From assembly GCA_903924465.1 (NCBI GenBank), contig CAIYBN010000145.1, forward strand, positions 17,364 to 81,363: 64,000 bases of DNA. The letters are read 5' to 3'. Below the pieces are notes generated by a model. The model ran no database searches, had not been told where the DNA came from, and worked only from the letters and a program-made list of their open reading frames with translations. Shown here in pieces: positions 1 to 23,501 of the stretch (within the stretch, counting starts at the first letter, position 1; each line of letters starts with the position of its first letter). The DNA comes from an uncultured Myxococcales bacterium. GTDB lineage: Bacteria; Myxococcota_A; UBA9042. Position numbers and translations under genes: made by a program.

Positions 1-726
<726 letters not shown>

Positions 727-893
727 TCAGACAAGAACGCCTGAACCGGGCGAGATAACGCGGCAATTTCTGGGAAGTTCCGAGTCGAGCGCGCGCATCA
801 CATGCGGCGAGCGCCAATCAGAGCCCGGGCGCAAAGGCTAAGCCAGGCGAGGCGATCTCGTCAAGGTGAACAGGTGACGATTGGGCTACGACA

Positions 894-3800
894 TCACTTG
901 CCGACGTAGACGAGCAGGGAGCGCTTGTGGGTCAGGTTGGGCGTCGAGTAGTTGTCCCAGAGCGCCAAACCGAAGCAATTCGCTGCCTCCCACGGGCTGC
1001 CGGGGTTGTTGACGATCAAGCTCGGGTGGGTTTCGTCGAAGCCGGTCTGATCGCCAATCCAACTGTAGTTGTAATCGAGGGAGTGGTTGCCGGTGTCGCC
1101 GCTTCCCATGACGATTTGCAGCAGGTTGTTCTGCAAGATGGTCGCCGCCTTGTCGGCCGGGAAACCATGGGTGCTGACGATCGCACCGGCCTTGAGACCC
1201 TGAACAAGCGCTCCAGGCAAGAAGACGTTCTGGTTCAGGTCAATCGCGCGCAAGAGCGGCCAGGGCGCACCGGGCGCGCCAGCTGCTGGCTGCTGCCCAC
1301 ACGCGATGCGGATACGTTTCCACTGGGTTGCCGCGCAGTTGGCGGCCCAGCCGCTGTCCGGGATGTCGCTGCTGTAGGGCAGGTCCTGATAGCCGGCGCA
1401 CTGGAAATAGCCCTCGCCTGAGTAGTCCGGACCGATCGCGTTGGGATCGATTCCGCCAGGATTGTTGACCGAGGCCAGCGGGAAATACCAATTGCAGTTC
1501 TCGTCGATGCTGCCGTTGCAGTTGTTGTCGATGCTATCGAAGCATGTCTCAGGTTCGCCCGGGTTGATCAGCACGCCACCCGATTTGGGGTCATCGTTGC
1601 AGTCGTTACCGCCCATCGGGCAAACGGTCGGCTTGCCGATGACAATCAAGTTCGCGTCGCAATACCCGTCGTTGTCCTTGTCACAACCTTCATCGATGTT
1701 GCCGTTGCAGTTGTTGTCCTTGTTGTCGCAGATCTCCGTGTTGCCGGGGAAATCTGCCGCGTTGTTGTCATCGCAGTCGTTGACGTGGGTGATGACAAAA
1801 CCGGTGTAGGGATCCTTGGTTGAGCACACCGCCGGCGCGCCGACGATCTTCTTGGCGGCGCTGCAAAAGCCGTCGCCGTCCGCGTCGCAACCCTCATCGG
1901 TCGCGCCGTTGCAGTCGTTGTCCATGTTGTCGCAGCTCTCCACCGTGCTGTAGAAGATGTTCCACGCTTGGTACTGCGAAGTATCGCATTTGGCCCAAAC
2001 GCCCGCCTTGCACATCGTCGGGGACTTCTTGGTGCCGGCGCACACGCCTTTCTGGGTCTCGCATTGCTGCGGATCGTCGTTGATCATGTCGCCGTCGTCC
2101 GCATCGGTTTTGTCGTCGCAATCGTTGTCGATATTGTCGCAAACTTCCTTCGCGCCGGGGTGCACGTCCGGATCCTCGTCGTTGCAGTCGCCGGGGCCCG
2201 CCAGACACGCGTAGGGGTGGCCGATCGCGCCCATGTTGGCATCGCAGTACCCGTCCAGGTCGTCGTCGCAGCCCTCATCCGTCAGGCCGTTGCAGTCATT
2301 GTCCAGGTTGTCGCAGATTTCCGTTTGCGGCGGACCCGGCTGGACGCTGCACGTCGAGCTGCTGAGATCCGCTTTGCAGACCTTGATGCCTTTGGCGACA
2401 CATTGGCCCTTGCCACCGGCGCAGGGTAGGCCCAAGTCGGGCCAGGTCTCGTCGGTGAGGCCGTTGCAGTCGTCGTCGACGGCATTGCACTTTTCTTTCG
2501 CGTCCGGGCGAATGTCCGGGTTGCCGTCGTTGCAGTCGCCGCCGCCGCCTGGGCACACGTTGGGGCCGCCGAACGTCATCATGTTGGCATCGCACCAACC
2601 GTCCTTGTCCTTGTCGCAGCCTTCATCGGTCACGCCGTTGCAGTTCTCGTCCAAGTTGTCGCAAAGTTCCGGCGCGCCGGGGTACGTCTTGCTGTTGGTA
2701 TCGTCGCAGTCGCCGCCACCTTTGGGGCAGGAGAGCGGAAAGCCGATGGTCGAGAAGCCGGAGTCGCAGTAGCCGTCCTTGTCATCGTCACAGCCCTCGT
2801 CGACCACGCCGTTGCAGTTGTTGTCCTTGTCGTCGCAAACCTCCGCGTTGCTGAAGCTGCTGTCGTATTTCTTGTAGTCGGTCGGGCTGCACGCCTGCCA
2901 AATGCCCCCGGAACAGAGCGAGATGGTCTTGGGCGCGCCAGAGCAGACGCCCAACTGGTTCGCGCAGAATTGCGGGTCGGTGAGCGGCAGGCCGGGATCG
3001 AGCGCATCGACGAAGCCATTGCAGTCGTTGTCCAACCCGTCGCAAATCTCAGGTGCTTTCGGGTGAATCTCATTCTTGGTGTCGTCGCAGTCGCCGCCGC
3101 CCTTGGTGCAGGTCAGCGTGCCTGGCTCGTAACCCATCGTCGCGTCGCAGTAACTGTCCCCGTCGTCGTCGCAGCCTTCGTCGGTCTTGCCATTGCAGTC
3201 GTCGTCAAAGCCATTGCAGGATTCGGTCTGGGGCGCTTGGCCGACGCACGTCTCGATGCCACCCGCGCAAAACGGCTTGCCCGGACATTTCAGCTTGCCG
3301 TTGTTGGACAACACGGAACACGTCGCGCCGGGCACAGCCTCGTCGGTCTGGCCATTGCAATTGTCGTCGATATTATTGCAGATTTCCGCCGTCGGCGTCG
3401 CGGCATCACACTTGGTCAGCACGCCCGTGTCGCAGTGGCGTTTGCCCGCGCAGCGGTCCTTGCCGACCGTGTTGTAGCAAAGCGTCTCGTCGCCTTCGGC
3501 TTCGTAGCGCTTGGTGCAATTCTGATCCAGGCTCGCCTTGTCGGTCACGCACTGCTGGACCAGCTTGCTGTCGGACAACCGCTTGACCTGTTGGCAGGTG
3601 AAATGGGTCGGGCAAAGCTGGCCACTGTCACACGCGCCGCCACAGAACGCGCCGGCATCGCCGAAACTCACACAGTAGTCGCCCAAACCGCCGATGGTCG
3701 CGCCCACGGCGCTTTTGCAGTCGGTGTCGGCCTGACACGGCTTGCCCAGATTGGGCGATCGCGGCACGCAGCCATATTGGACGTCCGGTGGCTCAGCGAG

Positions 3801-4223
3801 CTGGATGCATTGCCAGCCGAGCGGGCATTGCGTGTCATTGCCGCCACAGTCCTTGCTGCACACGTTGTTGTCTGGCGTGCTGATACAGTACGGGAACGCG
3901 CACAACTTTTCCGTGCTGCACGGCGAACCGCAATCGCCGGGTTGGTAGCCTTTGGCGTTGATGGTGCAAAGGTTGGGATCAACGGAAACATCCGTATTTT
4001 TGACGTCTTGCGTGTCGATCACGTCAATGTCCTGACCAACGTCCTCCGCCACGAAGTCTGGACTCGCGTCCTTGCTGTCCTTGCCGACGTCCATGCCGAC
4101 ATCGTCGACCAAGGCCGCGGAATCCGGTGAAGCCGCCGTCGATCCGCAGGCCGCCAAGGTCAAAAGCGTTGTCAGGCAACAGCCCCACCGCAGCATCATC
4201 CGGTTGTGTTCGCTTACCCGCAT
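894..4223 (-). CDS. Large lipoprotein with about 11 tandem MopE-type Cys-rich putative metal-binding repeats (CDxxDNDCNGxxDEGCDxDxDGYCD) and an uncharacterised C-terminal domain of about 200 aa
   Basis: Single 1109-aa ORF. N-terminal signal/lipobox (LTLAAC). D/V-rich linker. Repeated CxDNxDNDCNGxTDE motifs resembling the Pfam putative metal-binding (MopE) repeat common in Myxococcota. C-terminal domain with conserved Cys/His (NCFGLALW, GDTGNHS) of unknown fold. Confidence 0.8.
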   Translation of the reverse strand: MRVSEHNRMMLRWGCCLTTLLTLAACGSTAASPDSAALVDDVGMDVGKDSKDASPDFVAEDVGQDIDVIDTQDVKNTDVSVDPNLCTINAKGYQPGDCGSPCSTEKLCAFPYCISTPDNNVCSKDCGGNDTQCPLGWQCIQLAEPPDVQYGCVPRSPNLGKPCQADTDCKSAVGATIGGLGDYCVSFGDAGAFCGGACDSGQLCPTHFTCQQVKRLSDSKLVQQCVTDKASLDQNCTKRYEAEGDETLCYNTVGKDRCAGKRHCDTGVLTKCDAATPTAEICNNIDDNCNGQTDEAVPGATCSVLSNNGKLKCPGKPFCAGGIETCVGQAPQTESCNGFDDDCNGKTDEGCDDDGDSYCDATMGYEPGTLTCTKGGGDCDDTKNEIHPKAPEICDGLDNDCNGFVDALDPGLPLTDPQFCANQLGVCSGAPKTISLCSGGIWQACSPTDYKKYDSSFSNAEVCDDKDNNCNGVVDEGCDDDKDGYCDSGFSTIGFPLSCPKGGGDCDDTNSKTYPGAPELCDNLDENCNGVTDEGCDKDKDGWCDANMMTFGGPNVCPGGGGDCNDGNPDIRPDAKEKCNAVDDDCNGLTDETWPDLGLPCAGGKGQCVAKGIKVCKADLSSSTCSVQPGPPQTEICDNLDNDCNGLTDEGCDDDLDGYCDANMGAIGHPYACLAGPGDCNDEDPDVHPGAKEVCDNIDNDCDDKTDADDGDMINDDPQQCETQKGVCAGTKKSPTMCKAGVWAKCDTSQYQAWNIFYSTVESCDNMDNDCNGATDEGCDADGDGFCSAAKKIVGAPAVCSTKDPYTGFVITHVNDCDDNNAADFPGNTEICDNKDNNCNGNIDEGCDKDNDGYCDANLIVIGKPTVCPMGGNDCNDDPKSGGVLINPGEPETCFDSIDNNCNGSIDENCNWYFPLASVNNPGGIDPNAIGPDYSGEGYFQCAGYQDLPYSSDIPDSGWAANCAATQWKRIRIACGQQPAAGAPGAPWPLLRAIDLNQNVFLPGALVQGLKAGAIVSTHGFPADKAATILQNNLLQIVMGSGDTGNHSLDYNYSWIGDQTGFDETHPSLIVNNPGSPWEAANCFGLALWDNYSTPNLTHKRSLLVYVGK

Positions 4224-4347
4224 CGCTTCCCCGCCTTCTATCCGGCGCTACCGCCCGTTTTTCCGCAACGCCCCGACAACAAGCTTATCGGGAGTGGGTT
4301 GGCTTCTCAAGTTGTCGGCTGAAATGGTGGTCGAGCCCGCGATTCGG

Positions 4348-5226
4348 CTATTTTCCGCCAGCGCAGGTCTCGCCCGGCGTGAGGCACTGCATGCCGCCCG
4401 ATGCGCAGTCCACGCACGTGTGGCCGCTCGTGCACGCGGGAGTGCAGCCGGTGCCAAGGCAAGGCGCGGAATACGCAGCGATCGCTTGGCCGGCTTTTTG
4501 CGCGTGGCAAGCGCTGTCGTAGCTGTGGGTGTCGCAGCCGCAGACGGGCGCATAGAGCCCGGCGCAATTCGTCGGTTTGGGGAGACATTGGCCTTCGGTG
4601 AAGCCGCAACCCGTGTAGCTGCACCACTTGTCGGCGGCGCAGTCGGCCTGGCTGCTGCAGACGGTGTTTTCGGCGGGGATCTCGGCGGCGACGTCGAGGA
4701 TGTCGGGCGCGGCGTCGGGGACAACGTCCGCTGCAATCGGCGCGTCGCTGGCGTCGGCAGTGGTCAGGTCGGCGCTACTCGTGGCATCCGCGACCGATGC
4801 GCAGAGGTTCTGGCCATCGATGAAGAGACCATAACCGGGCGAGGGCAGCCGGCACCCGGCCGCATCGCCATAGATTCGGGTGTTGCAGCCGTCGGATGCC
4901 CCCTGCTTGAACCAGGTGTAGGCAAGCAAGTGGCCAGCGGCGTCAAAACGCCACGATTCAGCGTCTGATCGGCTCACCAGGTTGCCGCCATCGGCACAAG
5001 GCCAAAGCATGGCGCCCGAAGCGTAACTCAGGCCCTTGCAAGAGGTCCGCGCCTTCGCTTCGGCTTCGTCCAGGGTGATGGCGCGCAGCGAGTCGGCGAG
5101 CGCGTCCAAAGGAAATGCACAGTTCGCCGCGACCGGGCGTTCGTCCAGGGTGGAGCGACCCACGCACGCGGACTCCGCGACCGCCAGGATTCCGAGCCAC
5201 AGCCAGCATGACGTCTTCATGCCCAT
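4348..5226 (-). CDS. Secreted Cys-rich protein with C-terminal Kazal-type inhibitor-like module
   Basis: Signal peptide MGMKTSCWLWLGILAVAESA. C-terminus CAGLYAPVCGCDTHSYDSACHAQKAG matches the Kazal signature C..PVCG.D..TY.N.C. Many paired cysteines. Confidence 0.65.
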   Translation of the reverse strand: MGMKTSCWLWLGILAVAESACVGRSTLDERPVAANCAFPLDALADSLRAITLDEAEAKARTSCKGLSYASGAMLWPCADGGNLVSRSDAESWRFDAAGHLLAYTWFKQGASDGCNTRIYGDAAGCRLPSPGYGLFIDGQNLCASVADATSSADLTTADASDAPIAADVVPDAAPDILDVAAEIPAENTVCSSQADCAADKWCSYTGCGFTEGQCLPKPTNCAGLYAPVCGCDTHSYDSACHAQKAGQAIAAYSAPCLGTGCTPACTSGHTCVDCASGGMQCLTPGETCAGGK

Positions 5227-5251
5227 ACCATCGGCGTTTCACCGCGGGAAT

Positions 5252-6487
5252 TCAAGGCAAAAAAATACCAGAAAGGCCGCCCCACTCGCGTGAGAACGGC
5301 CTCCCTGAACTTCTCCCAAGCTGGAAGCTCACGATCGCTGAAAGCAATCCAAACTGCGAAGCCATGAATGAGCGATTTTGAATCAAAGGATACATGTAGA
5401 AAGGAAGCCCGAGCATAGTGCCGATGATCAATAGTCCAGGAATCGTTTGACTGTCCCATTCCAGAACTTCGCGCAGGCGAATCGCAACTTTGACGGCGAA
5501 CACGGCTAGAACAACCGCCGCCAGGGTCCAAATCACAGAAAGATTGGCAGTTGGCATCCAGTCATCCACGACCACGACGAATCGTCGCAGAGCCCCAGAC
5601 CGCAAGAATTCAAAGCCAGCTGCAGTGCCGACAACGGTTGCTGCGAGAATGGCCATTTCGTCGGCGACAAGTCGAGCATCCCAGCGGGCGCCTCGACCCA
5701 GTGGGCTCCACCATCCCACCCGACGCGCATGAGCGAGTGACGCAACGTCTGCCGCGCGAAAGTCGGCGTCACGAATCCGCGCCCATCGAAGGTCGCAATT
5801 CCGCAACCGCGCCTTCCAAAAATAGCTCCACCGAAGGTCCGAACCACGGAAGTCGACGTCAAGCAGACACGCTTCAGCGAACTCGCAATTCCGAAAGGCG
5901 GCAGACCTCGCGATGAAATCCGAGAGAAACGTGCCGCCGAACCAGCAGTACTCGCAGTCGGCCCCCCGAAAATCGGCGCCCCGAAGGTCGACCGCCCGCC
6001 ACGACGTGCGCGTTGCGCGCATGTAACTGGCCCGGACAGCCGCCATGTTGCTTCCCTCGAAGACGACGTCCTCCATTTCAGCCTTCTCGAAGCAAGCGGA
6101 GCGCAACGCGCAATCCGAGAACTGGCAGCGGAGCAGGTACGCTCCTTCGAACGTCGCCCGGTCCAACCTGGCGCGCGTGAAGTCGACGTCGACCAAGTAC
6201 GCTCGGCAGAAATTTGCGCCGCGAAGGTCGGCGGATACGAACCTACTGCCAGACAGATCCCAGCCGCCGAAATCCGCGCCGCAGAGAATCCTGTTGTTGT
6301 TCTCCAGCTGGCGACCAGCCAAATCCAGCGGCTCTAGCCTATCGCGCGCGGTTGGCTTTGGCTTTTCAGGATTGAAAAATGTGTCGGTGAATAAATCCCG
6401 CCGCCGCATTCTGGGATCGGGACCAAACCGCGCAACATGGCCTGAGGTGTCCCAGTCGCGCCTCGCATCGTAACGTCCTTGCCACAT
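5252..6487 (-). CDS. Pentapeptide-repeat protein with C-terminal 3-4 transmembrane helices
   Basis: Tandem A(D/N)LxxAxF-type pentapeptide repeats (ADLRGANFCRAYLVDVDFTRARLDRATFEGAYL...). C-terminal hydrophobic segments (MAILAATVVGTAAGF, LSVIWTLAAVVLAVFAV, IPGLLIIGTMLGLPFYMY). Start taken at ATG 6487 (GAGG RBS) rather than the TTG at 6526. Confidence 0.75.
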   Translation of the reverse strand: MWQGRYDARRDWDTSGHVARFGPDPRMRRRDLFTDTFFNPEKPKPTARDRLEPLDLAGRQLENNNRILCGADFGGWDLSGSRFVSADLRGANFCRAYLVDVDFTRARLDRATFEGAYLLRCQFSDCALRSACFEKAEMEDVVFEGSNMAAVRASYMRATRTSWRAVDLRGADFRGADCEYCWFGGTFLSDFIARSAAFRNCEFAEACLLDVDFRGSDLRWSYFWKARLRNCDLRWARIRDADFRAADVASLAHARRVGWWSPLGRGARWDARLVADEMAILAATVVGTAAGFEFLRSGALRRFVVVVDDWMPTANLSVIWTLAAVVLAVFAVKVAIRLREVLEWDSQTIPGLLIIGTMLGLPFYMYPLIQNRSFMASQFGLLSAIVSFQLGRSSGRPFSREWGGLSGIFLP

Positions 6488-6552
6488 GACGACCTCGGCG
6501 CGTTTCCCGTGAACGGCCCAAAGCAAGTGTCGAGCAAACCGGCTTCACCGGC

Positions 6553-6798
6553 TTACGCCGCCCGTGCGCCCACGACTCTCTCGTGCAGCGAATCCGGCGC
6601 CAAATCCAGACCATTCGGCCACAAAGGCGCACCGTAATCGGACAGCACCACCAGCGCAAAGTACGCCGGGTCCTTGAGTGGCTCGAACATCGGCCCGCGC
6701 AAACGGTCCGCCAGGTCGACCTCGCCCTCGACGCCGTCGTCGAAGCGCACCATCAGACGATACGGTGGACGGACTTCGAGGTAGATCAGCCGTTCCAT
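6553..6798 (-). CDS. DUF2442-family small protein
   Basis: 81-aa ORF, MERLIYLEVRPPYRLMVRFDDGVEGEVDL..., typical of DUF2442. Lies 4 nt downstream of the DUF4160 gene. Confidence 0.7.
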   Translation of the reverse strand: MERLIYLEVRPPYRLMVRFDDGVEGEVDLADRLRGPMFEPLKDPAYFALVVLSDYGAPLWPNGLDLAPDSLHERVVGARAA

Positions 6799-6801
6799 TG
6801 C

Positions 6802-7062
6802 CTACTCCAGCGGCTCAACCGGCGACAGTGGCTCGCCGCGCTCAGACCGCGCCCAGTTTTCTTGCAGCTCGGCGCGGTGCAGGAGCGTCCATTCGGCCAA
6901 GAGCGCCATAGCACGGCGCGGCAAATGGCCCTTCACGACCTCCAACGTGTCGATCCGGACCACCGCCTGCTCCCCGGCGTATTCTACATGAAAATGCGGG
7001 GGCGGATGCTCGTCCCAATACATGCGGATGACCATCCCCAAGAATCGGCTGATCTCCGGCAT
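6802..7062 (-). CDS. DUF4160-family small protein
   Basis: 86-aa ORF MPEISRFLGMVIRMYWDEHPPPHFHVEY..., typical DUF4160. GGAGG RBS 6 nt upstream. Only 24 bp downstream of the rpoC stop. Confidence 0.7.
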   Translation of the reverse strand: MPEISRFLGMVIRMYWDEHPPPHFHVEYAGEQAVVRIDTLEVVKGHLPRRAMALLAEWTLLHRAELQENWARSERGEPLSPVEPLE

Positions 7063-7086
7063 CGCTCGCCTCCGAACCTGGCCCGC

Positions 7087-11625
<4,539 letters not shown>

Positions 11626-11854: not shown

Positions 11855-16750
<4,896 letters not shown>

Positions 16751-16823
16751 CGTATCACTTCTCCTTCCAGCCTCTTTCCAGCGAAATCTGGAGCGGCGGA
16801 CTTCTGGGGACGGGAACTGGCAA

Positions 16824-16860
16824 ACCCCCGGGCGGCGGAATCGATTCCGTCCGCCCAGGG
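16824..16860 (-). terminator. GC-rich hairpin in the rplL-rpoB intergenic region (candidate partial terminator/attenuator)
   Basis: GGCGGCGGA-ATCGAT-TCCG(T)CCGCC inverted repeat, extended by CCCGGG/CCCAGGG, followed on the transcript by GUUUGCC. Position is analogous to the known rplL-rpoB attenuator in other bacteria. Confidence 0.3.
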
Positions 16861-16945
16861 GTGCCTTCTGAACCTTGCCGGGAACCCGCACGGTCACGCG
16901 CAGTGACCGAAGCTTCCCGGTGAAACAAACCAGACCTTGGCGAAA

Positions 16946-17415: not shown

Positions 17416-17946
17416 TTAGGCCGCTTCCGCTTTGGGTTCCAACTGCTCGATACGCGCGGTGAGCACGTTGAGGATGGAACGCGGAGCAGCCGCGAGGGTA
17501 CCGACGAACTTGGCTGGAACGGCATTCAAGGTGCCGAGCAGCATCGCCCGCAGTTGATCGCGTCCCGGCAGTTCCGACAGGGCCTTGACTTGCGCGGCGC
17601 TGAGCGCTTTGCCAGACAGGGCACCACCGGTAATCACGAGGTTCGGGACGTCCTTGGCAATCTTGACGATCGCCTTGGCCGGACCGACCACGTCGGGACC
17701 GAAGGTCATCAGCACAGGCCCCACCAGCTTGTCAGAGAGCGCCTCAAGCGAGGTGCCTTTGACCGACAAGCGAGCAAGGGTGTTCTTCACCACTACAACT
17801 TTGCCTTCCGCGCTACGCACCGCAGTGCGCAGGCTTTGCATCTGTTCCACCGTCATGCCGCGGTATTCCGCGACAATCACAGCGTCGATGCCGGCAAGTT
17901 GCTGGCGAAGCGCGTCGACCCGATCCTGTTTTTCAGCCTTGTTCAT
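17416..17946 (-). CDS. rplJ: 50S ribosomal protein L10
   Basis: 176 aa. MNKAEKQDRVDALRQQL...VAEYRGMTVEQMQSLR, typical L10. Confidence 0.95.
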   Translation of the reverse strand: MNKAEKQDRVDALRQQLAGIDAVIVAEYRGMTVEQMQSLRTAVRSAEGKVVVVKNTLARLSVKGTSLEALSDKLVGPVLMTFGPDVVGPAKAIVKIAKDVPNLVITGGALSGKALSAAQVKALSELPGRDQLRAMLLGTLNAVPAKFVGTLAAAPRSILNVLTARIEQLEPKAEAA

Positions 17947-18348: not shown

Positions 18349-19059
18349 TTACGCCAGTCGGAATTCCGCGGCCATCGCAACCGGATCCACGCGCACGCCC
18401 GGGGCATGCGTGGTCGTCACGGTCAGGGCCTTCAAATAGGTGCCTTTCGCCGTCGCCGGCTTGGCTTTCACCAGCGCTTCGACGAGCGCCGCGATGTTCT
18501 CGCGGATCTTGACGGCTTCAAACGAGCGCTTGCCCACGGCAGCGTGAATGATACCGGCCTTCTCCGCGCGGAACTCGATCTTACCGGCCTTCGCCGCCGA
18601 AACCGCCGCCGCCACGTCAAACGTGACCGTGCCGACCTTGGGATTGGGCATCAAACCGCGCGGACCGAGGGCCTTACCGATCTTACCGACCGCGACCATC
18701 ATGTTCGGCGTGGCGATGCAGGTGTCGAATTCGAACCAGCCGCCTTTGACCTTTTCGATCAGCTCGTCGTCGCCCACGAAGTCGGCGCCAGCGGCTTCCG
18801 CCTCCGCAGCCTTTTCGCCCTTGGCGAACACGAGCACGCGGTTCACTTTGCCCGTGCCATTGGGCAGCACCACCGCGCCACGCACCATCTGGTCCGCGTG
18901 CTTGGGGTTGACGCCCAGGTTGATGGCGACTTCAAAGGCCTCGTCGTACTTGGAGAACGAGTTGTCTTTGGCGATCTGGATCGCTTCGTCGAGGGAGTAG
19001 CGCTTCTGCCGGTCGAAACGGGCGAGCGCGGCGTTGTACTTGCGCGAATGCTTAGCCAT
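18349..19059 (-). CDS. rplA: 50S ribosomal protein L1
   Basis: 236 aa. [27 protein letters not shown]...[17 protein letters not shown], typical L1. Confidence 0.96.
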
Positions 19060-19695: not shown

Positions 19696-20304
19696 CTACT
19701 GCCCGGCGATCTTCTCCACCTGCATGAAGCCCAGCTCCACCGGCGTGGCGCGACCGAAGATCGATACCAGCACTTTGAGCTTCTGCTTGTCGGCGCTGAC
19801 TTCCGCCACGGTTCCGGCGAAATTGGCAAACGGGCCATCGATGACGCGCACTTCCGTGCCCTCGTCAAAGCTGACCACCGGCTTGGCCGCGACTTCGCTC
19901 GTCTCCAACTGACCGAGGATGCGCTGGATCTCCAGATCCGGCACCGGGCTCGGGCGCTTGGCCTTGTCTTTTTCCGTGCCCAAGAAGCCGATGATCTTCT
20001 GGGTGTTCTTGACCAGGTGCCAGCTCTCGTCGGTGAGAATCATCTGCACCAGCAGGTAGCCCGGGAAGAACTTGCGCTTGGACTCGCGACGCACGCCCGC
20101 GCGCACCTCCGCGACCTTCTCGGTCGGCACCAGCACTTCGCCAAAATACTGTTCCAGGCCTTCCTGCTTGATCCGCTCGACCAGGCTGGCACGGGCCACG
20201 TTTTCCGAGCCGGTGTACGTGTTGACGATGAACCAGCGCTTGCGCGGCACACGGCCCACGGTCGCGGGGGCTTCAGTCGTCATCTCTTGGAGCTGCTCAG
20301 TCAT
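19696..20304 (-). CDS. nusG: Transcription termination/antitermination factor NusG
   Basis: [15 protein letters not shown]... NGN domain and C-terminal KOW ([18 protein letters not shown]). Start set at MTEQ (AGGGA 7 nt upstream). The track's upstream ATG at 20322 has no spacing for an RBS. Confidence 0.93.
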
Positions 20305-20399
20305 GTTGATTCCCTGCCTCATTCCCTGTCAGGTTCGCCTGTCGCGTCCGAATCCGTCGCCGCGACCGCTTCCAGTCGTCCCGCCACGCATCCGCGTCA

Positions 20400-20851: not shown

Positions 20852-20925
20852 CAGGCCAGGCGGGATTCGAACCCACAACCCGCAGATTTGGAGTCTGCCG
20901 CTCTACCGTTAGAGCTACTGGCCTC
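20852..20925 (-). tRNA. tRNA-Trp (anticodon CCA)
   Basis: Reverse complement AGGCCAGTAGCTCTAACGGTAGAGCGGCAGACTCCAAATCTGCGGGTTGTGGGTTCGAATCCCGCCTGGCCTG folds as a cloverleaf with anticodon loop CUCCAAA. Canonical location between rpmG and secE. Confidence 0.85.
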
Positions 20926-21095
20926 TCGATCCGTCGATACGGACCCATCTGCGGCGTTGTCGCTGCGGAAGGCCGGCTTGACGTACCCAAGTACGCCTGC
21001 GCCGTCCTTCCTTGCTCCGCCTTGCATCTGGGCCCGTCTCGACGGCCGAGACGAAGACAGGGAGCAGAGGGCAGGAACAGGCGACAAAGCCCGAT

Positions 21096-21275
21096 TTACT
21101 TGGTCTCCTTGTGTTCCGTGTGCTTCCGCTCATAGCGGCAGTACTTCTTGAGCGTCAAGCGACCGGGCGTGGTCTTCTTGTTCTTCGTGGTCGTGTAACG
21201 CGAAACGCCCGGGATGCCGGCGGTGCGGCAGGTCTGGCACTCCAGATGGATGATGCTGCGGTTGCTGGCGGCCAT
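21096..21275 (-). CDS. rpmG: 50S ribosomal protein L33
   Basis: [59 protein letters not shown] with CxxC...C zinc ribbon. ATG at 21275 with GGAG RBS. The track's extra M is a GTG. Confidence 0.9.
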
Positions 21276-21364
21276 CACGGACTCCTTCTAGCAAATATCC
21301 CGAGCGCGAACGCTGGGACTCGAACGGTGAGGCAAATGCGCCTCAAGATAACCCTGCAAGCAGG

Positions 21365-21422
21365 CGATCCGCCGGGGCCGCAACTCCTGTTGAGGGAGCT
21401 TTGGACAAGCCCGGCGGATCGC
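21365..21422 (-). terminator. Perfect 13-bp inverted repeat stem-loop downstream of tuf (candidate terminator/attenuator or processing signal)
   Basis: GCGATCCGCCGGG ...(32 nt, itself containing a CTCC/GGAG stem)... CCCGGCGGATCGC, between the tuf stop and rpmG start. Confidence 0.35.
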
Positions 21423-21446
21423 ACATTCGCTTGCGCGACGCGACAA

Positions 21447-22649
21447 TTACTTGTCGATCGACGCCACCAGACCCGCGCCGACGGTCTTGCCGCCTTCACG
21501 AATCGCGAACCGCATACCGGTTTCCATGGCGACCGGCACGATGAGCTTGACGATCAGGTCCACGCGGTCGCCCGGCTTGACCATCTCGACGCCCGGCTGC
21601 AGATCGATATCGCCGGTGATGTCCGCCGTACCGAAGTAGAACTGCGGACGGTAGCCCTTGAAGAACGGCTTGGAACGGCCGCCTTCGTCTTTGCTCAGCA
21701 CGTAGACCGAAGCCACGAACTGCGTGTGCGGGGTCACAGAACCCGGCTTGCACAGCGTCTGGCCACGCTCCACGTCGTCACGTTTCAGACCACGGAGCAG
21801 CGCGCCGAGGTTGTCGCCCGCTTGGCCCTGATCCACGGTCTTGTGGAACATTTCAATGCCGGTGATCGTCGTCTTCTGCGTCGGGCGAATGCCCACCACT
21901 TCGACTTCGTCGCCAACCTTGACCGTGCCGCGATCCACGCGACCGGTGACCACGGTGCCACGGCCCGAGATCGTCATCGTGTCTTCGACGGCCATCATGA
22001 ACGGCTTGTCGAGTTCGCGAATCGGATCCGGGATGAAGTTGTCCAGGGCGTCCATCAGCTTGTCGATCGACGGTGTGCCAAATTCCGTGGTCTCACCCTG
22101 CAGAGCCTGCAGCGCGGAACCGCGGATGATCGGCGCGTTGTCGCCGTCGAACTCGTACTTGGCCAGCAGCTCGCGCAGCTCCATGTCGACGAGGTCAACG
22201 AGCTCGCCCGCGGGGTCATCCGCATAGGCGATGTCGCACTTGTTCAGGTACACCACGATCGAGGGCACGCCCACCTGACGAGCGAGCAGCACGTGCTCCT
22301 TCGTCTGTGGCATCGGGCCGTCCGTCGCCGCGCAAACGACGATCGCGCCGTCCATCTGCGCCGCGCCAGTGATCATGTTCTTGATGTAGTCGGCGTGACC
22401 CGGACAGTCCACGTGCGCATAGTGGCGCTTCGCGGTCTCGTATTCCACGTGAGCGGTCGAGATCGTGATGCCACGCGCCTTTTCTTCGGGGGTCTTGTCG
22501 ATCTCATCGAACGACTTGGCCTTGCCGAAGCCTTTGGCTGCTTGGTGTTTGGTAATGGCTGCCGTCAACGTGGTCTTGCCGTGGTCGACGTGGCCGATGG
22601 TTCCCACGTTCACGTGGGGCTTGTTGCGCTCAAACTTGGCCTTGGCCAT
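21447..22649 (-). CDS. tuf: Elongation factor Tu
   Basis: [32 protein letters not shown]..., full EF-Tu. GGGAGG RBS upstream of ATG 22649. The track's ORF adds 8 N-terminal aa. Confidence 0.97.
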
Positions 22650-22969
22650 TGTCAGGGTCCTCCCGCCACACATGCGGCGTCTGGTTCATCAAACAGGCAC
22701 CCGCCTGTTGGTTGCCTTTCGGCGTGCTGCCTCACGACCCGAAAGTCGTGTGGCGTCTTTGCCTTCGGGCGCATGCCGTCTGGCGGTTTGTGCCCGTTGC
22801 CAGGCACGTGGGTTCGCGACACGTGGCTGTCGTGAAGGCGAGCCTTCGTCGAGCGGTGTCACATGGATTTGTCTCGACGCGTCTCTCTCCCGGTCTTCTG
22901 CGCTGTCTCGGTCCGCGGCGTTTCCGCCCAAACCTCTCCAGACCAGACTTCCCGAGTCAGCGCGGCGCC

Positions 22970-23045
<76 letters not shown>

Positions 23046-23100
23046 GCTTTCGCCGTTTCCCAAGCTGCGTAGGCCTGTCAGGCAGAGAACGGTCGGTCAG

Positions 23101-23173
23101 AGCGGGAAACGGGATTCGAACCCGCGACATTCAGCTTGGAAGGCTGACGCTCTACCAGCTGAGCTATTCCCGC
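23101..23173 (-). tRNA. tRNA-Gly (anticodon TCC)
   Basis: Reverse complement GCGGGAATAGCTCAGCTGGTAGAGCGTCAGCCTTCCAAGCTGAATGTCGCGGGTTCGAATCCCGTTTCCCGCT. Anticodon loop CUUCCAA. Confidence 0.85.
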
Positions 23174-23283
23174 GTGCGCCTCAAGTGGTGTCCAAGTCGA
23201 CGATGGCCGCGCGACGCCGCCCAGAGGCGCGTTGTCGCAGTACGCATGCGCCAGCGGGTTCGGTTTGTGCAGCGGATTCACGG

Positions 23284-23366
23284 TGGAAGCTGGTGGATTC
23301 GAACCACCGTAGGCGTTAGCCAGCAGATTTACAGTCTGCCCCCATTAGCCACTCGGGCAAGCTTCC
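23284..23366 (-). tRNA. tRNA-Tyr (anticodon GTA), long variable arm
   Basis: Reverse complement GGAAGCTTGCCCGAGTGGCTAATGGGGGCAGACTGTAAATCTGCTGGCTAACGCCTACGGTGGTTCGAATCCACCAGCTTCCA. Anticodon loop ACUGUAAA. Confidence 0.85.
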
Positions 23367-23428
23367 GTTTGGCTGATCTTCCGTCTGACCGATGTGACCC
23401 GCTGAGCCGCGTAACCTCGCAACCACAG

Positions 23429-23501
23429 AGCTGGCGAAGGGACTTGAACCCGCAACCTGCTGATTACAAATCAGCTGCTCTGCCAATTGAGCTACGCCAG
23501 C
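23429..23501 (-). tRNA. tRNA-Thr (anticodon TGT)
   Basis: Reverse complement GCTGGCGTAGCTCAATTGGCAGAGCAGCTGATTTGTAATCAGCAGGTTGCGGGTTCAAGTCCCTTCGCCAGCT. Anticodon loop UUUGUAA. Confidence 0.85.

Follow-up and report, generated by a model that had tools for sequence, protein, structure and literature searches.

Layout of the rpoC 3′ Flank

Two small genes, whose products belong to the DUF4160 and DUF2442 families, stand directly behind rpoC in a stretch of 64,000 nt of DNA from an uncultured Myxococcales bacterium (the window, by which we mean the whole stretch that was analysed). What is this pair, how did it come to lie at the end of the RNA polymerase operon, and is it transcribed as part of it? 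The setting upstream is familiar, as nusG-rplKAJL-rpoB-rpoC forms a conventional block with rpoC at its end. The features at issue are the following.

19696..20322: nusG (NCBIfam)
18349..19059: rplA, ribosomal protein L1 (NCBIfam)
17416..17946: rplJ, ribosomal protein L10 (NCBIfam)
11855..16897: rpoB (NCBIfam)
7087..11625, minus strand: rpoC, 1512 aa, Rpb1 domains 1-5 all present (Pfam)
7063..7086, minus strand: leader from the rpoC stop to the ATG of the putative toxin gene, 24 nt, sequence gcgggccaggttcGGAGGcgagcg
6802..7062, minus strand: DUF4160 gene (putative DhiT-like toxin), 86 aa, PF13711
6799..6801, minus strand: spacer from the toxin stop to the antitoxin ATG, 3 nt, gca
6553..6798, minus strand: DUF2442 gene (putative short-form DhiA-like antitoxin), 81 aa, PF10387
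6534..6556, minus strand: weak 10-bp hairpin overlapping the antitoxin stop, no U-run after it, fold z = −1.09
5252..6487, minus strand: pentapeptide-repeat gene (Pfam Pentapeptide, E = 2e-27), 65 nt after the cassette

An earlier note on this DNA had placed the two small genes on the strand of rpoC without saying which; all three are on the minus strand. The distance that it gave from the rpoC stop (TAA, 7087..7089) to the DUF4160 ATG is exactly 24 nt, and the GGAGG ribosome-binding site that it had seen lies at 7069..7073, 6 nt ahead of that ATG. Both the GGTTCGGAGG-6nt-ATG arrangement and the length of the leader are also kept in a sister contig, L086, to which we return below. The gap between the two genes had been put at 4 nt and has to be corrected to 3 (TAG-gca-ATG, the toxin stop being 6802..6804); it is 4 nt in L086. 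A GGAG at 6805..6808, inside the final codons of the toxin gene, precedes the antitoxin ATG, and together with the 3-nt spacer it makes a layout that would fit translational coupling.

The hairpin at 6534..6556 is not convincing as a terminator. The pentapeptide-repeat gene beyond it, whose start is adopted from the gene call in L001, would likewise receive any read-through from rpoC. It has no homology at the matching position in L086, and therefore represents variable flank, outside the cassette; other genes replace it there. From 894 to 6487 the genes on the rpoC strand include the pentapeptide-repeat gene, a Kazal-like gene, and a gene for a 1,109-aa protein with 11 MopE-type metal-binding repeats; they are separated by gaps of 25–124 nt with no strong terminator. 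Upstream of the nusG-ribosomal protein block, a five-tRNA gene cluster occupies 20852-23501 of the minus strand. Both large polymerase subunits look long for bacteria (rpoC at 1512 aa, rpoB at up to 1680 aa by ORF and 1632 aa in a relative), which suggests lineage-specific insertions.

Family Assignment of the Two Proteins

HMM searches uphold both domain assignments, which had been proposed from the letters alone. The DUF4160 protein matches PF13711 at E = 1.2e-21 (77.1 bits, cut-off 23; profile positions 1-64 of 65) and, over nearly its full length, the NCBIfam model NF048015 toxin_DhiT (74.2 bits, E = 9.2e-21, under the equivalog cut-off of 100). The residues that are invariant in 107 sequences (F7, G9, H19, P21, H25, G45, W58, H62, L66, W70, P84, and L85) are all found in the window protein. 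Also present is H23, nearly invariant in the family, and the motif reads H-P-P-P-H-F-H. These conserved histidines hint at a catalytic or metal-binding site, perhaps that of a metal-dependent enzyme. An AF2 model of the protein is confident (pLDDT 95.4). A sequence search of the PDB returned no significant match, and the fold is one without a solved relative.

The DUF2442 protein passes the gathering threshold of PF10387 (E = 9e-11, 42 bits, cut-off 23.9) and has the fold of a solved representative; its AlphaFold model reaches a pLDDT of 95.1. Against NF048016 DhiA it scores 25.9 bits, the equivalog cut-off being 200, and aligns to profile positions 1-73 of 160. It thus appears to be a short form without the C-terminal half of DhiA. 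Compared with NE0471 of Nitrosomonas europaea (PDB 2AUW, deposited as a putative DNA-binding protein), which is ~170 aa long and has an extra C-terminal domain, the window protein corresponds to the N-domain only. The other DUF2442 partners found here are mostly 80–93 aa.

By its sequence, then, the pair can be classed as a type II toxin-antitoxin cassette of two genes, belonging to the DhiT/DhiA (DUF4160/DUF2442) family. Since both proteins fall under the NCBIfam equivalog cut-offs (74 versus 100 bits and 26 versus 200 bits), it would be a family relative of DhiT/DhiA and no orthologue. The description of such pairs as functionally uncharacterised is out of date: DhiT/DhiA has been tested (PMC8198452), so has a Thermus plasmid module (PMC12724237), and NCBIfam models exist. 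In Dickeya dadantii 3937, dhiTA is a DUF4160/DUF2442 pair with the toxin gene first; DhiT inhibits growth of Dickeya and of Escherichia coli, and co-expression of the second gene relieves the inhibition (PMC8198452). The dhiTA promoter lies no more than 100 bp ahead of the toxin gene; the antitoxin represses it, and the toxin-antitoxin complex does so more strongly (PMC8198452). The window pair resembles dhiTA in its two Pfam families, in the unusual toxin-antitoxin order (seen in every homologous locus that we fetched), and in the abutting genes. It differs from that locus, which has an autoregulated promoter of its own, in that its toxin gene lies only 24 nt from rpoC, and from DhiA, with a profile of 160 positions, in that its antitoxin of 81 aa has no C-terminal half.

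The closest experimentally tested relative is the Persistence-Enhancing Module of pTthSNM3-3d/pIOK9 (PMC12724237), with the same short antitoxin and the same gene order. In Thermus thermophilus this pair (87 and 92 aa) makes its plasmid more persistent, and deletion of the second ORF prevents transformation, so that the plasmid fails to become established; the pair has no effect in E. coli (PMC12724237). In a tblastn search of plasmids, 47 of which carry a homologue of the pair, the best match was pTthSNM3-3d, the source of vector pIOK9. Its toxin is 57% identical to that of the window over 86/86 residues, and its antitoxin 43% identical over 75 residues. Both window proteins have the dimensions of this short form (toxin ~86–87 aa, antitoxin ~80–92 aa) and can be aligned to it over their full length. 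The Thermus module is carried on a plasmid behind a rep gene and serves plasmid maintenance, whereas the window pair is chromosomal and stands at the end of the rpoBC operon. A conjugative plasmid of Legionella pneumophila (NZ_CP021285) has the same pair as the cargo of a mobile element, a compact unit of two genes flanked by a Tn3 transposase and its resolvase. In contrast, no transposase, resolvase, integrase, or terminal repeat was seen beside the window cassette or inside the L086 insert described below.

The pair therefore reveals no new kind of system: the DhiT/DhiA family is already known, and a relative of the short form has been tested. The novelty lies in where the pair sits and how it came there. 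The window adds a putative myxobacterial short-form member to a barely studied family, and its practical value is modest.

The Pair Occupies the Terminator Site of Relatives

Within the GTDB species set, the Myxococcota MAG Deming_bin.407 (locus L006) is the closest genome. Its rpoC is 1512 aa, as in the window, and 86%–88% identical to it in the amino acids of the C-terminus; the remaining matches in the species set reach at most 64%. About 45 nt past the L006 rpoC stop there is a 17-bp GC-rich hairpin with a T-rich tail (z = −3.8), and no DUF4160 ORF occurs in the remaining 350 nt after rpoC. Two further relatives, L177 (85%) and L179 (87%), were found through protein fragments from a search with the rpoC C-terminus (mostly short matches; the useful ones were P0216 and P0217), and both have canonical terminators directly behind rpoC. 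A further contig, L180 (via P0220), is ridden with frameshifts, probably from long reads, and was left out. In total, four relatives or rpoC copies that have no pair show a strong intrinsic terminator shortly past the rpoC stop, and window position 7063..7086 corresponds to this terminator site; the relatives compared within the lineage number four or five, a thin sampling.

The earlier note had called the placement unusual, and the wider survey agrees with it. A DUF4160 ORF occurred at 0/160 other rpoC loci, drawn from genomes and metagenomes, when these were searched with an HMM from 120 relatives; 153 of the 160 had at least 400 nt downstream of rpoC. A scan of JGI metagenomes with the rpoC C-terminus yielded no close relative (the best match was 73%) and serves only as background for this count. 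That a gene follows closely on rpoC is in itself nothing remarkable: rpsL is often next, as seen in a survey of following ORFs that was crude and swamped by spurious high-GC ORFs. A toxin-antitoxin pair directly behind rpoC, as predicted here, does appear to be unusual, and our literature search found no report of one downstream of rpoC.

The tight linkage, with a junction that is conserved between the window and L086, might be taken to mean that the pair serves RNA polymerase or rpoBC expression as a dedicated accessory, such as a regulator of β′, and is functionally tied to rpoC. We find this scarcely credible. The pair is missing behind rpoC in all other relatives and in the 160 diverse rpoC loci, the family is scattered across unrelated contexts and 47 plasmids, and the homologues that have been tested act as toxin and antitoxin. 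This distribution also answers whether the pair is universal in the clade: it is not, and hence the arrangement is no conserved core feature.

The next closest homologues carry toxins 71%–77% identical to that of the window. They are always paired with DUF2442 and lie in unrelated contexts: beside a PhdYefM antitoxin gene, in a HepT/MNT island, after pilS, next to gcpE, and after an 812-aa gene. A 73% homologue is present in the MAG of L006 itself, on a different contig, beside a Mur ligase gene. Judged by these comparisons with relatives and with other contexts, the pair was acquired and is no part of a conserved core, as the earlier note had proposed. The reason offered there, a GC content lower than that of the flanks, does not hold: the cassette has a GC content of 0.644 against a window mean of 0.633, at the 65th percentile among equal-sized windows, and its GC3 (0.77–0.81) lies inside the range of neighbouring host genes (0.72–0.86). 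We accordingly rejected any argument for acquisition from composition, as GC and GC3 match the window and the host genes.

Two of the homologous loci have peculiarities of their own. In L088, a 7.3-kb metagenome contig, positions 700-6450 form a toxin-antitoxin island around a 77%-identical DUF4160/DUF2442 pair, with three DUF2442 genes, a second, degraded DUF4160 ORF, two HepT/MNT pairs, and an HTH gene. In L174 (5953-6003) a DUF4160 frame, 73% identical over the 73 aa called, runs in frame directly past the TGA of the 812-aa gene, and no canonical start codon occurs in it before the internal Met10. A truncated toxin could account for this, as could a non-canonical start or read-through of the stop codon.

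Such islands raise the possibility that the pair is chiefly an anti-phage defence acting by abortive infection and not by addiction, the rpoC flank being one slot in a variable hotspot of defence and toxin-antitoxin genes. In the Menshen anti-phage system, DUF4160 is found as an effector domain of NsnC-like proteins (PMC12065111); hipBA-like genes and GmrSD occupy the rpoC 3′ flank in another relative; and the L088 pair sits within an island of HepT/MNT modules. The window toxin differs from the Menshen effector in being a stand-alone protein of 86 aa with a DUF2442 partner and no NsnA, NsnB, or NsnC genes. No PADLOC model matched either protein or their neighbours, and the literature search found no phage-defence test of a stand-alone DUF4160/DUF2442 pair. 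The flank in the window consists of genes for secreted proteins (pentapeptide, Kazal-like, and MopE-repeat), not defence genes. We consider defence as the main role possible though unlikely, and favour the reading of the pair as a DhiT/DhiA-family toxin-antitoxin cassette, for which phage protection could still be one benefit. A search of Rfam at the locus returned nothing.

A Sister Contig and the History of the Insertion

Seven metagenome contigs encode an identical DUF4160 protein and share the rpoC-pair layout of the window. The version on L086 is 94% identical to that of the window, and the two sequences share 91.5% nucleotide identity over rpoC, the 24-nt leader, and the pair, with the same junction. 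Homology by blastn breaks off at L086 position 5015, which equals window position 6551, 2 nt past the DUF2442 stop; this breakpoint evidently marks the downstream edge of the shared cassette.

In L086 the last 182 codons of rpoC occur a second time (7007..7555), about 2.5 kb downstream of the rpoC-pair junction and ~2 kb past the pair, as assembled in this single metagenome scaffold, which contains no Ns. The two rpoC 3′ copies are 95% identical and make up a 554-nt direct repeat (3930-4483 and 7007-7560). Their C-terminal tails differ: the second copy ends in ..ANGVA*, and rpoC of the type linked to the cassette ends in ..AGGMV* (..SYAGGMV* in the window). Behind the second copy lies a very strong terminator (AGAACGGCCGCC...GGCGGCCGTTCTGGTTTTT, z = −5.7). 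The window has a single rpoC 3′ end and no second copy. On its minus strand, crude and noisy scans from the pair to the start of the window found no terminator comparable to those of the relatives.

These observations show an insertion. The cassette most probably entered in the common ancestor of the window and L086, a few nucleotides downstream of the rpoC stop and ahead of the strong intrinsic terminator with which the rpoBC operon of relatives closes. The incoming DNA, comprising an rpoC 3′ end and the pair, would have recombined within rpoC, displacing the native 3′ end and its terminator downstream. The native terminator is gone from behind the window rpoC, and in L086 it survives ~2.5 kb on, after the duplicated rpoC 3′ end. 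The second rpoC copy in L086 looks like a remnant of this event, and the contig would thus preserve an intermediate state, with a duplicated rpoC 3′ end and the old terminator behind it. Loss of the pair in the relatives, in place of gain here, is less parsimonious, and only the L086 remnant excludes it.

An integrase-driven island at the 3′ end of a gene was considered and rejected: the direct repeat exists in L086, yet no integrase or recombinase accompanies it. Pfam searches of ORF489 and ORF76 in the 3.1-kb L086 insert found no recombinase, and none was found in the window flank. An origin from an integron, a transposon, or an integrase was likewise rejected, with no attC-like site, transposase, or recombinase recognised beside the cassette.

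The rpoC 3′ copies of L086 are mosaic. Their central ~200 nt are almost identical and both ends differ, and in the 5′ part of the repeat the downstream copy resembles the window more closely than the functional copy does. This pattern suggests gene conversion between the copies.

Expression and Selection

No terminator-like or promoter-like site was found between rpoC and the pair, and the predicted fold of the junction is no stronger than that of shuffled sequence (z = −0.26), which bears out the earlier remark that neither a hairpin nor a T-tract intervenes. Read-through is favoured by the 24-nt gap, the lack of a hairpin, the missing native terminator, the lack of a promoter-like site, and the conservation of the leader in L086. 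Because the pair lies where relatives have their terminator, it is probably transcribed with the polymerase genes; on the evidence of the sequence, co-transcription with rpoBC is likely. A polymerase finishing rpoC would continue through the 24-nt leader, and the pair would form the tail of the rpoBC transcript. The toxin and antitoxin genes each have what would be a Shine-Dalgarno sequence of their own, and the 3-nt spacing would let their translation be coupled. The DUF2442 protein would then bind the DUF4160 toxin directly and neutralise it, as shown genetically for homologues, and the module would persist through addiction (its loss being harmful), through phage protection, or both. Its physiological role could thus lie in addiction, in keeping the locus stable, or in defence against phage. 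Overall, the explanation that we think probably correct is that of a DhiT/DhiA-family cassette inserted behind rpoC and read through as the tail of rpoBC, its toxin neutralised by its antitoxin.

A pair transcribed mainly from a promoter of its own, within the last 100–200 nt of rpoC, would be an ordinary free-standing operon whose adjacency to rpoC is incidental. It would then be like Dickeya dhiTA, whose autoregulated promoter is noted above (PMC8198452), and like most close homologues, which have 130–435 nt of non-coding DNA upstream. We rate this as rather unlikely. No sigma-70-like site was found in 4000..8000, a scan to be read with the caution that the sigma-70 consensus captures myxobacterial promoters poorly; the DNA upstream is constrained rpoC coding sequence; and the antitoxin is without the C-terminal half of DhiA, so that it may be missing the part that usually binds the operator. 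Were there such a promoter, rpoC transcripts would still meet nothing to stop them reading through into the pair.

Transcription as the tail of rpoBC thus remains our preferred reading. With only 24 nt of non-coding DNA ahead of its toxin gene, and with the C-terminal half of DhiA missing from its antitoxin, the pair may not be autoregulated in the classical way. Taken further, a cassette with neither promoter nor autoregulation of its own, fully dependent on rpoBC transcription, might act as a sensor of the output of the RNA polymerase operon: if rpoBC transcription collapsed in starvation, the stringent response, or phage takeover, a labile antitoxin would not be replenished and the toxin would be freed. 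We regard this extension as improbable.

Comparison of the window with L086 allows selection on the pair to be estimated. The toxin gene shows 23 synonymous and six non-synonymous differences (dN/dS 0.06), the antitoxin gene 31 and 15 (dN/dS 0.105), and rpoC itself has a dN/dS of 0.06. These low values indicate that both genes have been kept by selection at their position behind rpoC. They bear on the view that the cassette is an inactive remnant, a passive passenger whose toxin is no longer toxic. Chromosomal toxin-antitoxin modules often decay, and the Thermus pair, as mentioned, has no effect in E. coli (PMC12724237). Set against this are the strong purifying selection on both genes since the split of the window and L086 (23 versus 6 and 31 versus 15) and the intact state of the two reading frames, their ribosome-binding sites, and every invariant residue, and we hold a dead cassette to be very improbable.

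If the read-through is real, the terminator of an essential and highly conserved operon has been displaced by a selfish two-gene module. The module would be expressed in step with the subunits of RNA polymerase and would be very hard to lose, and the locus would offer a clean natural example of how addiction modules embed themselves beside core genes.

The rpoC 3′ End as a Variable Site

The rpoC 3′ flank is flagged as variable in this clade. The conserved 3′ end of the gene may serve as a homology anchor, a recurrent point of entry for toxin-antitoxin and defence cargo in these Myxococcota, though we regard this reading, too, as improbable. In L177 the rpoC gene is itself split, by a net insertion of 17 nt, into ORFs of 1316 aa and 187 aa; downstream of it come a strong terminator and then, on the opposite strand, hipA/HTH genes and GmrSD. 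The split recurs in three independent assemblies (L177 1-330, L178, and a 98-kb contig of ERZ1426706) and may reflect a tolerated division of β′ and mark a recombination-prone spot. In L177 it falls ~20 codons upstream of the point at which the duplicated rpoC 3′ copy of L086 begins.
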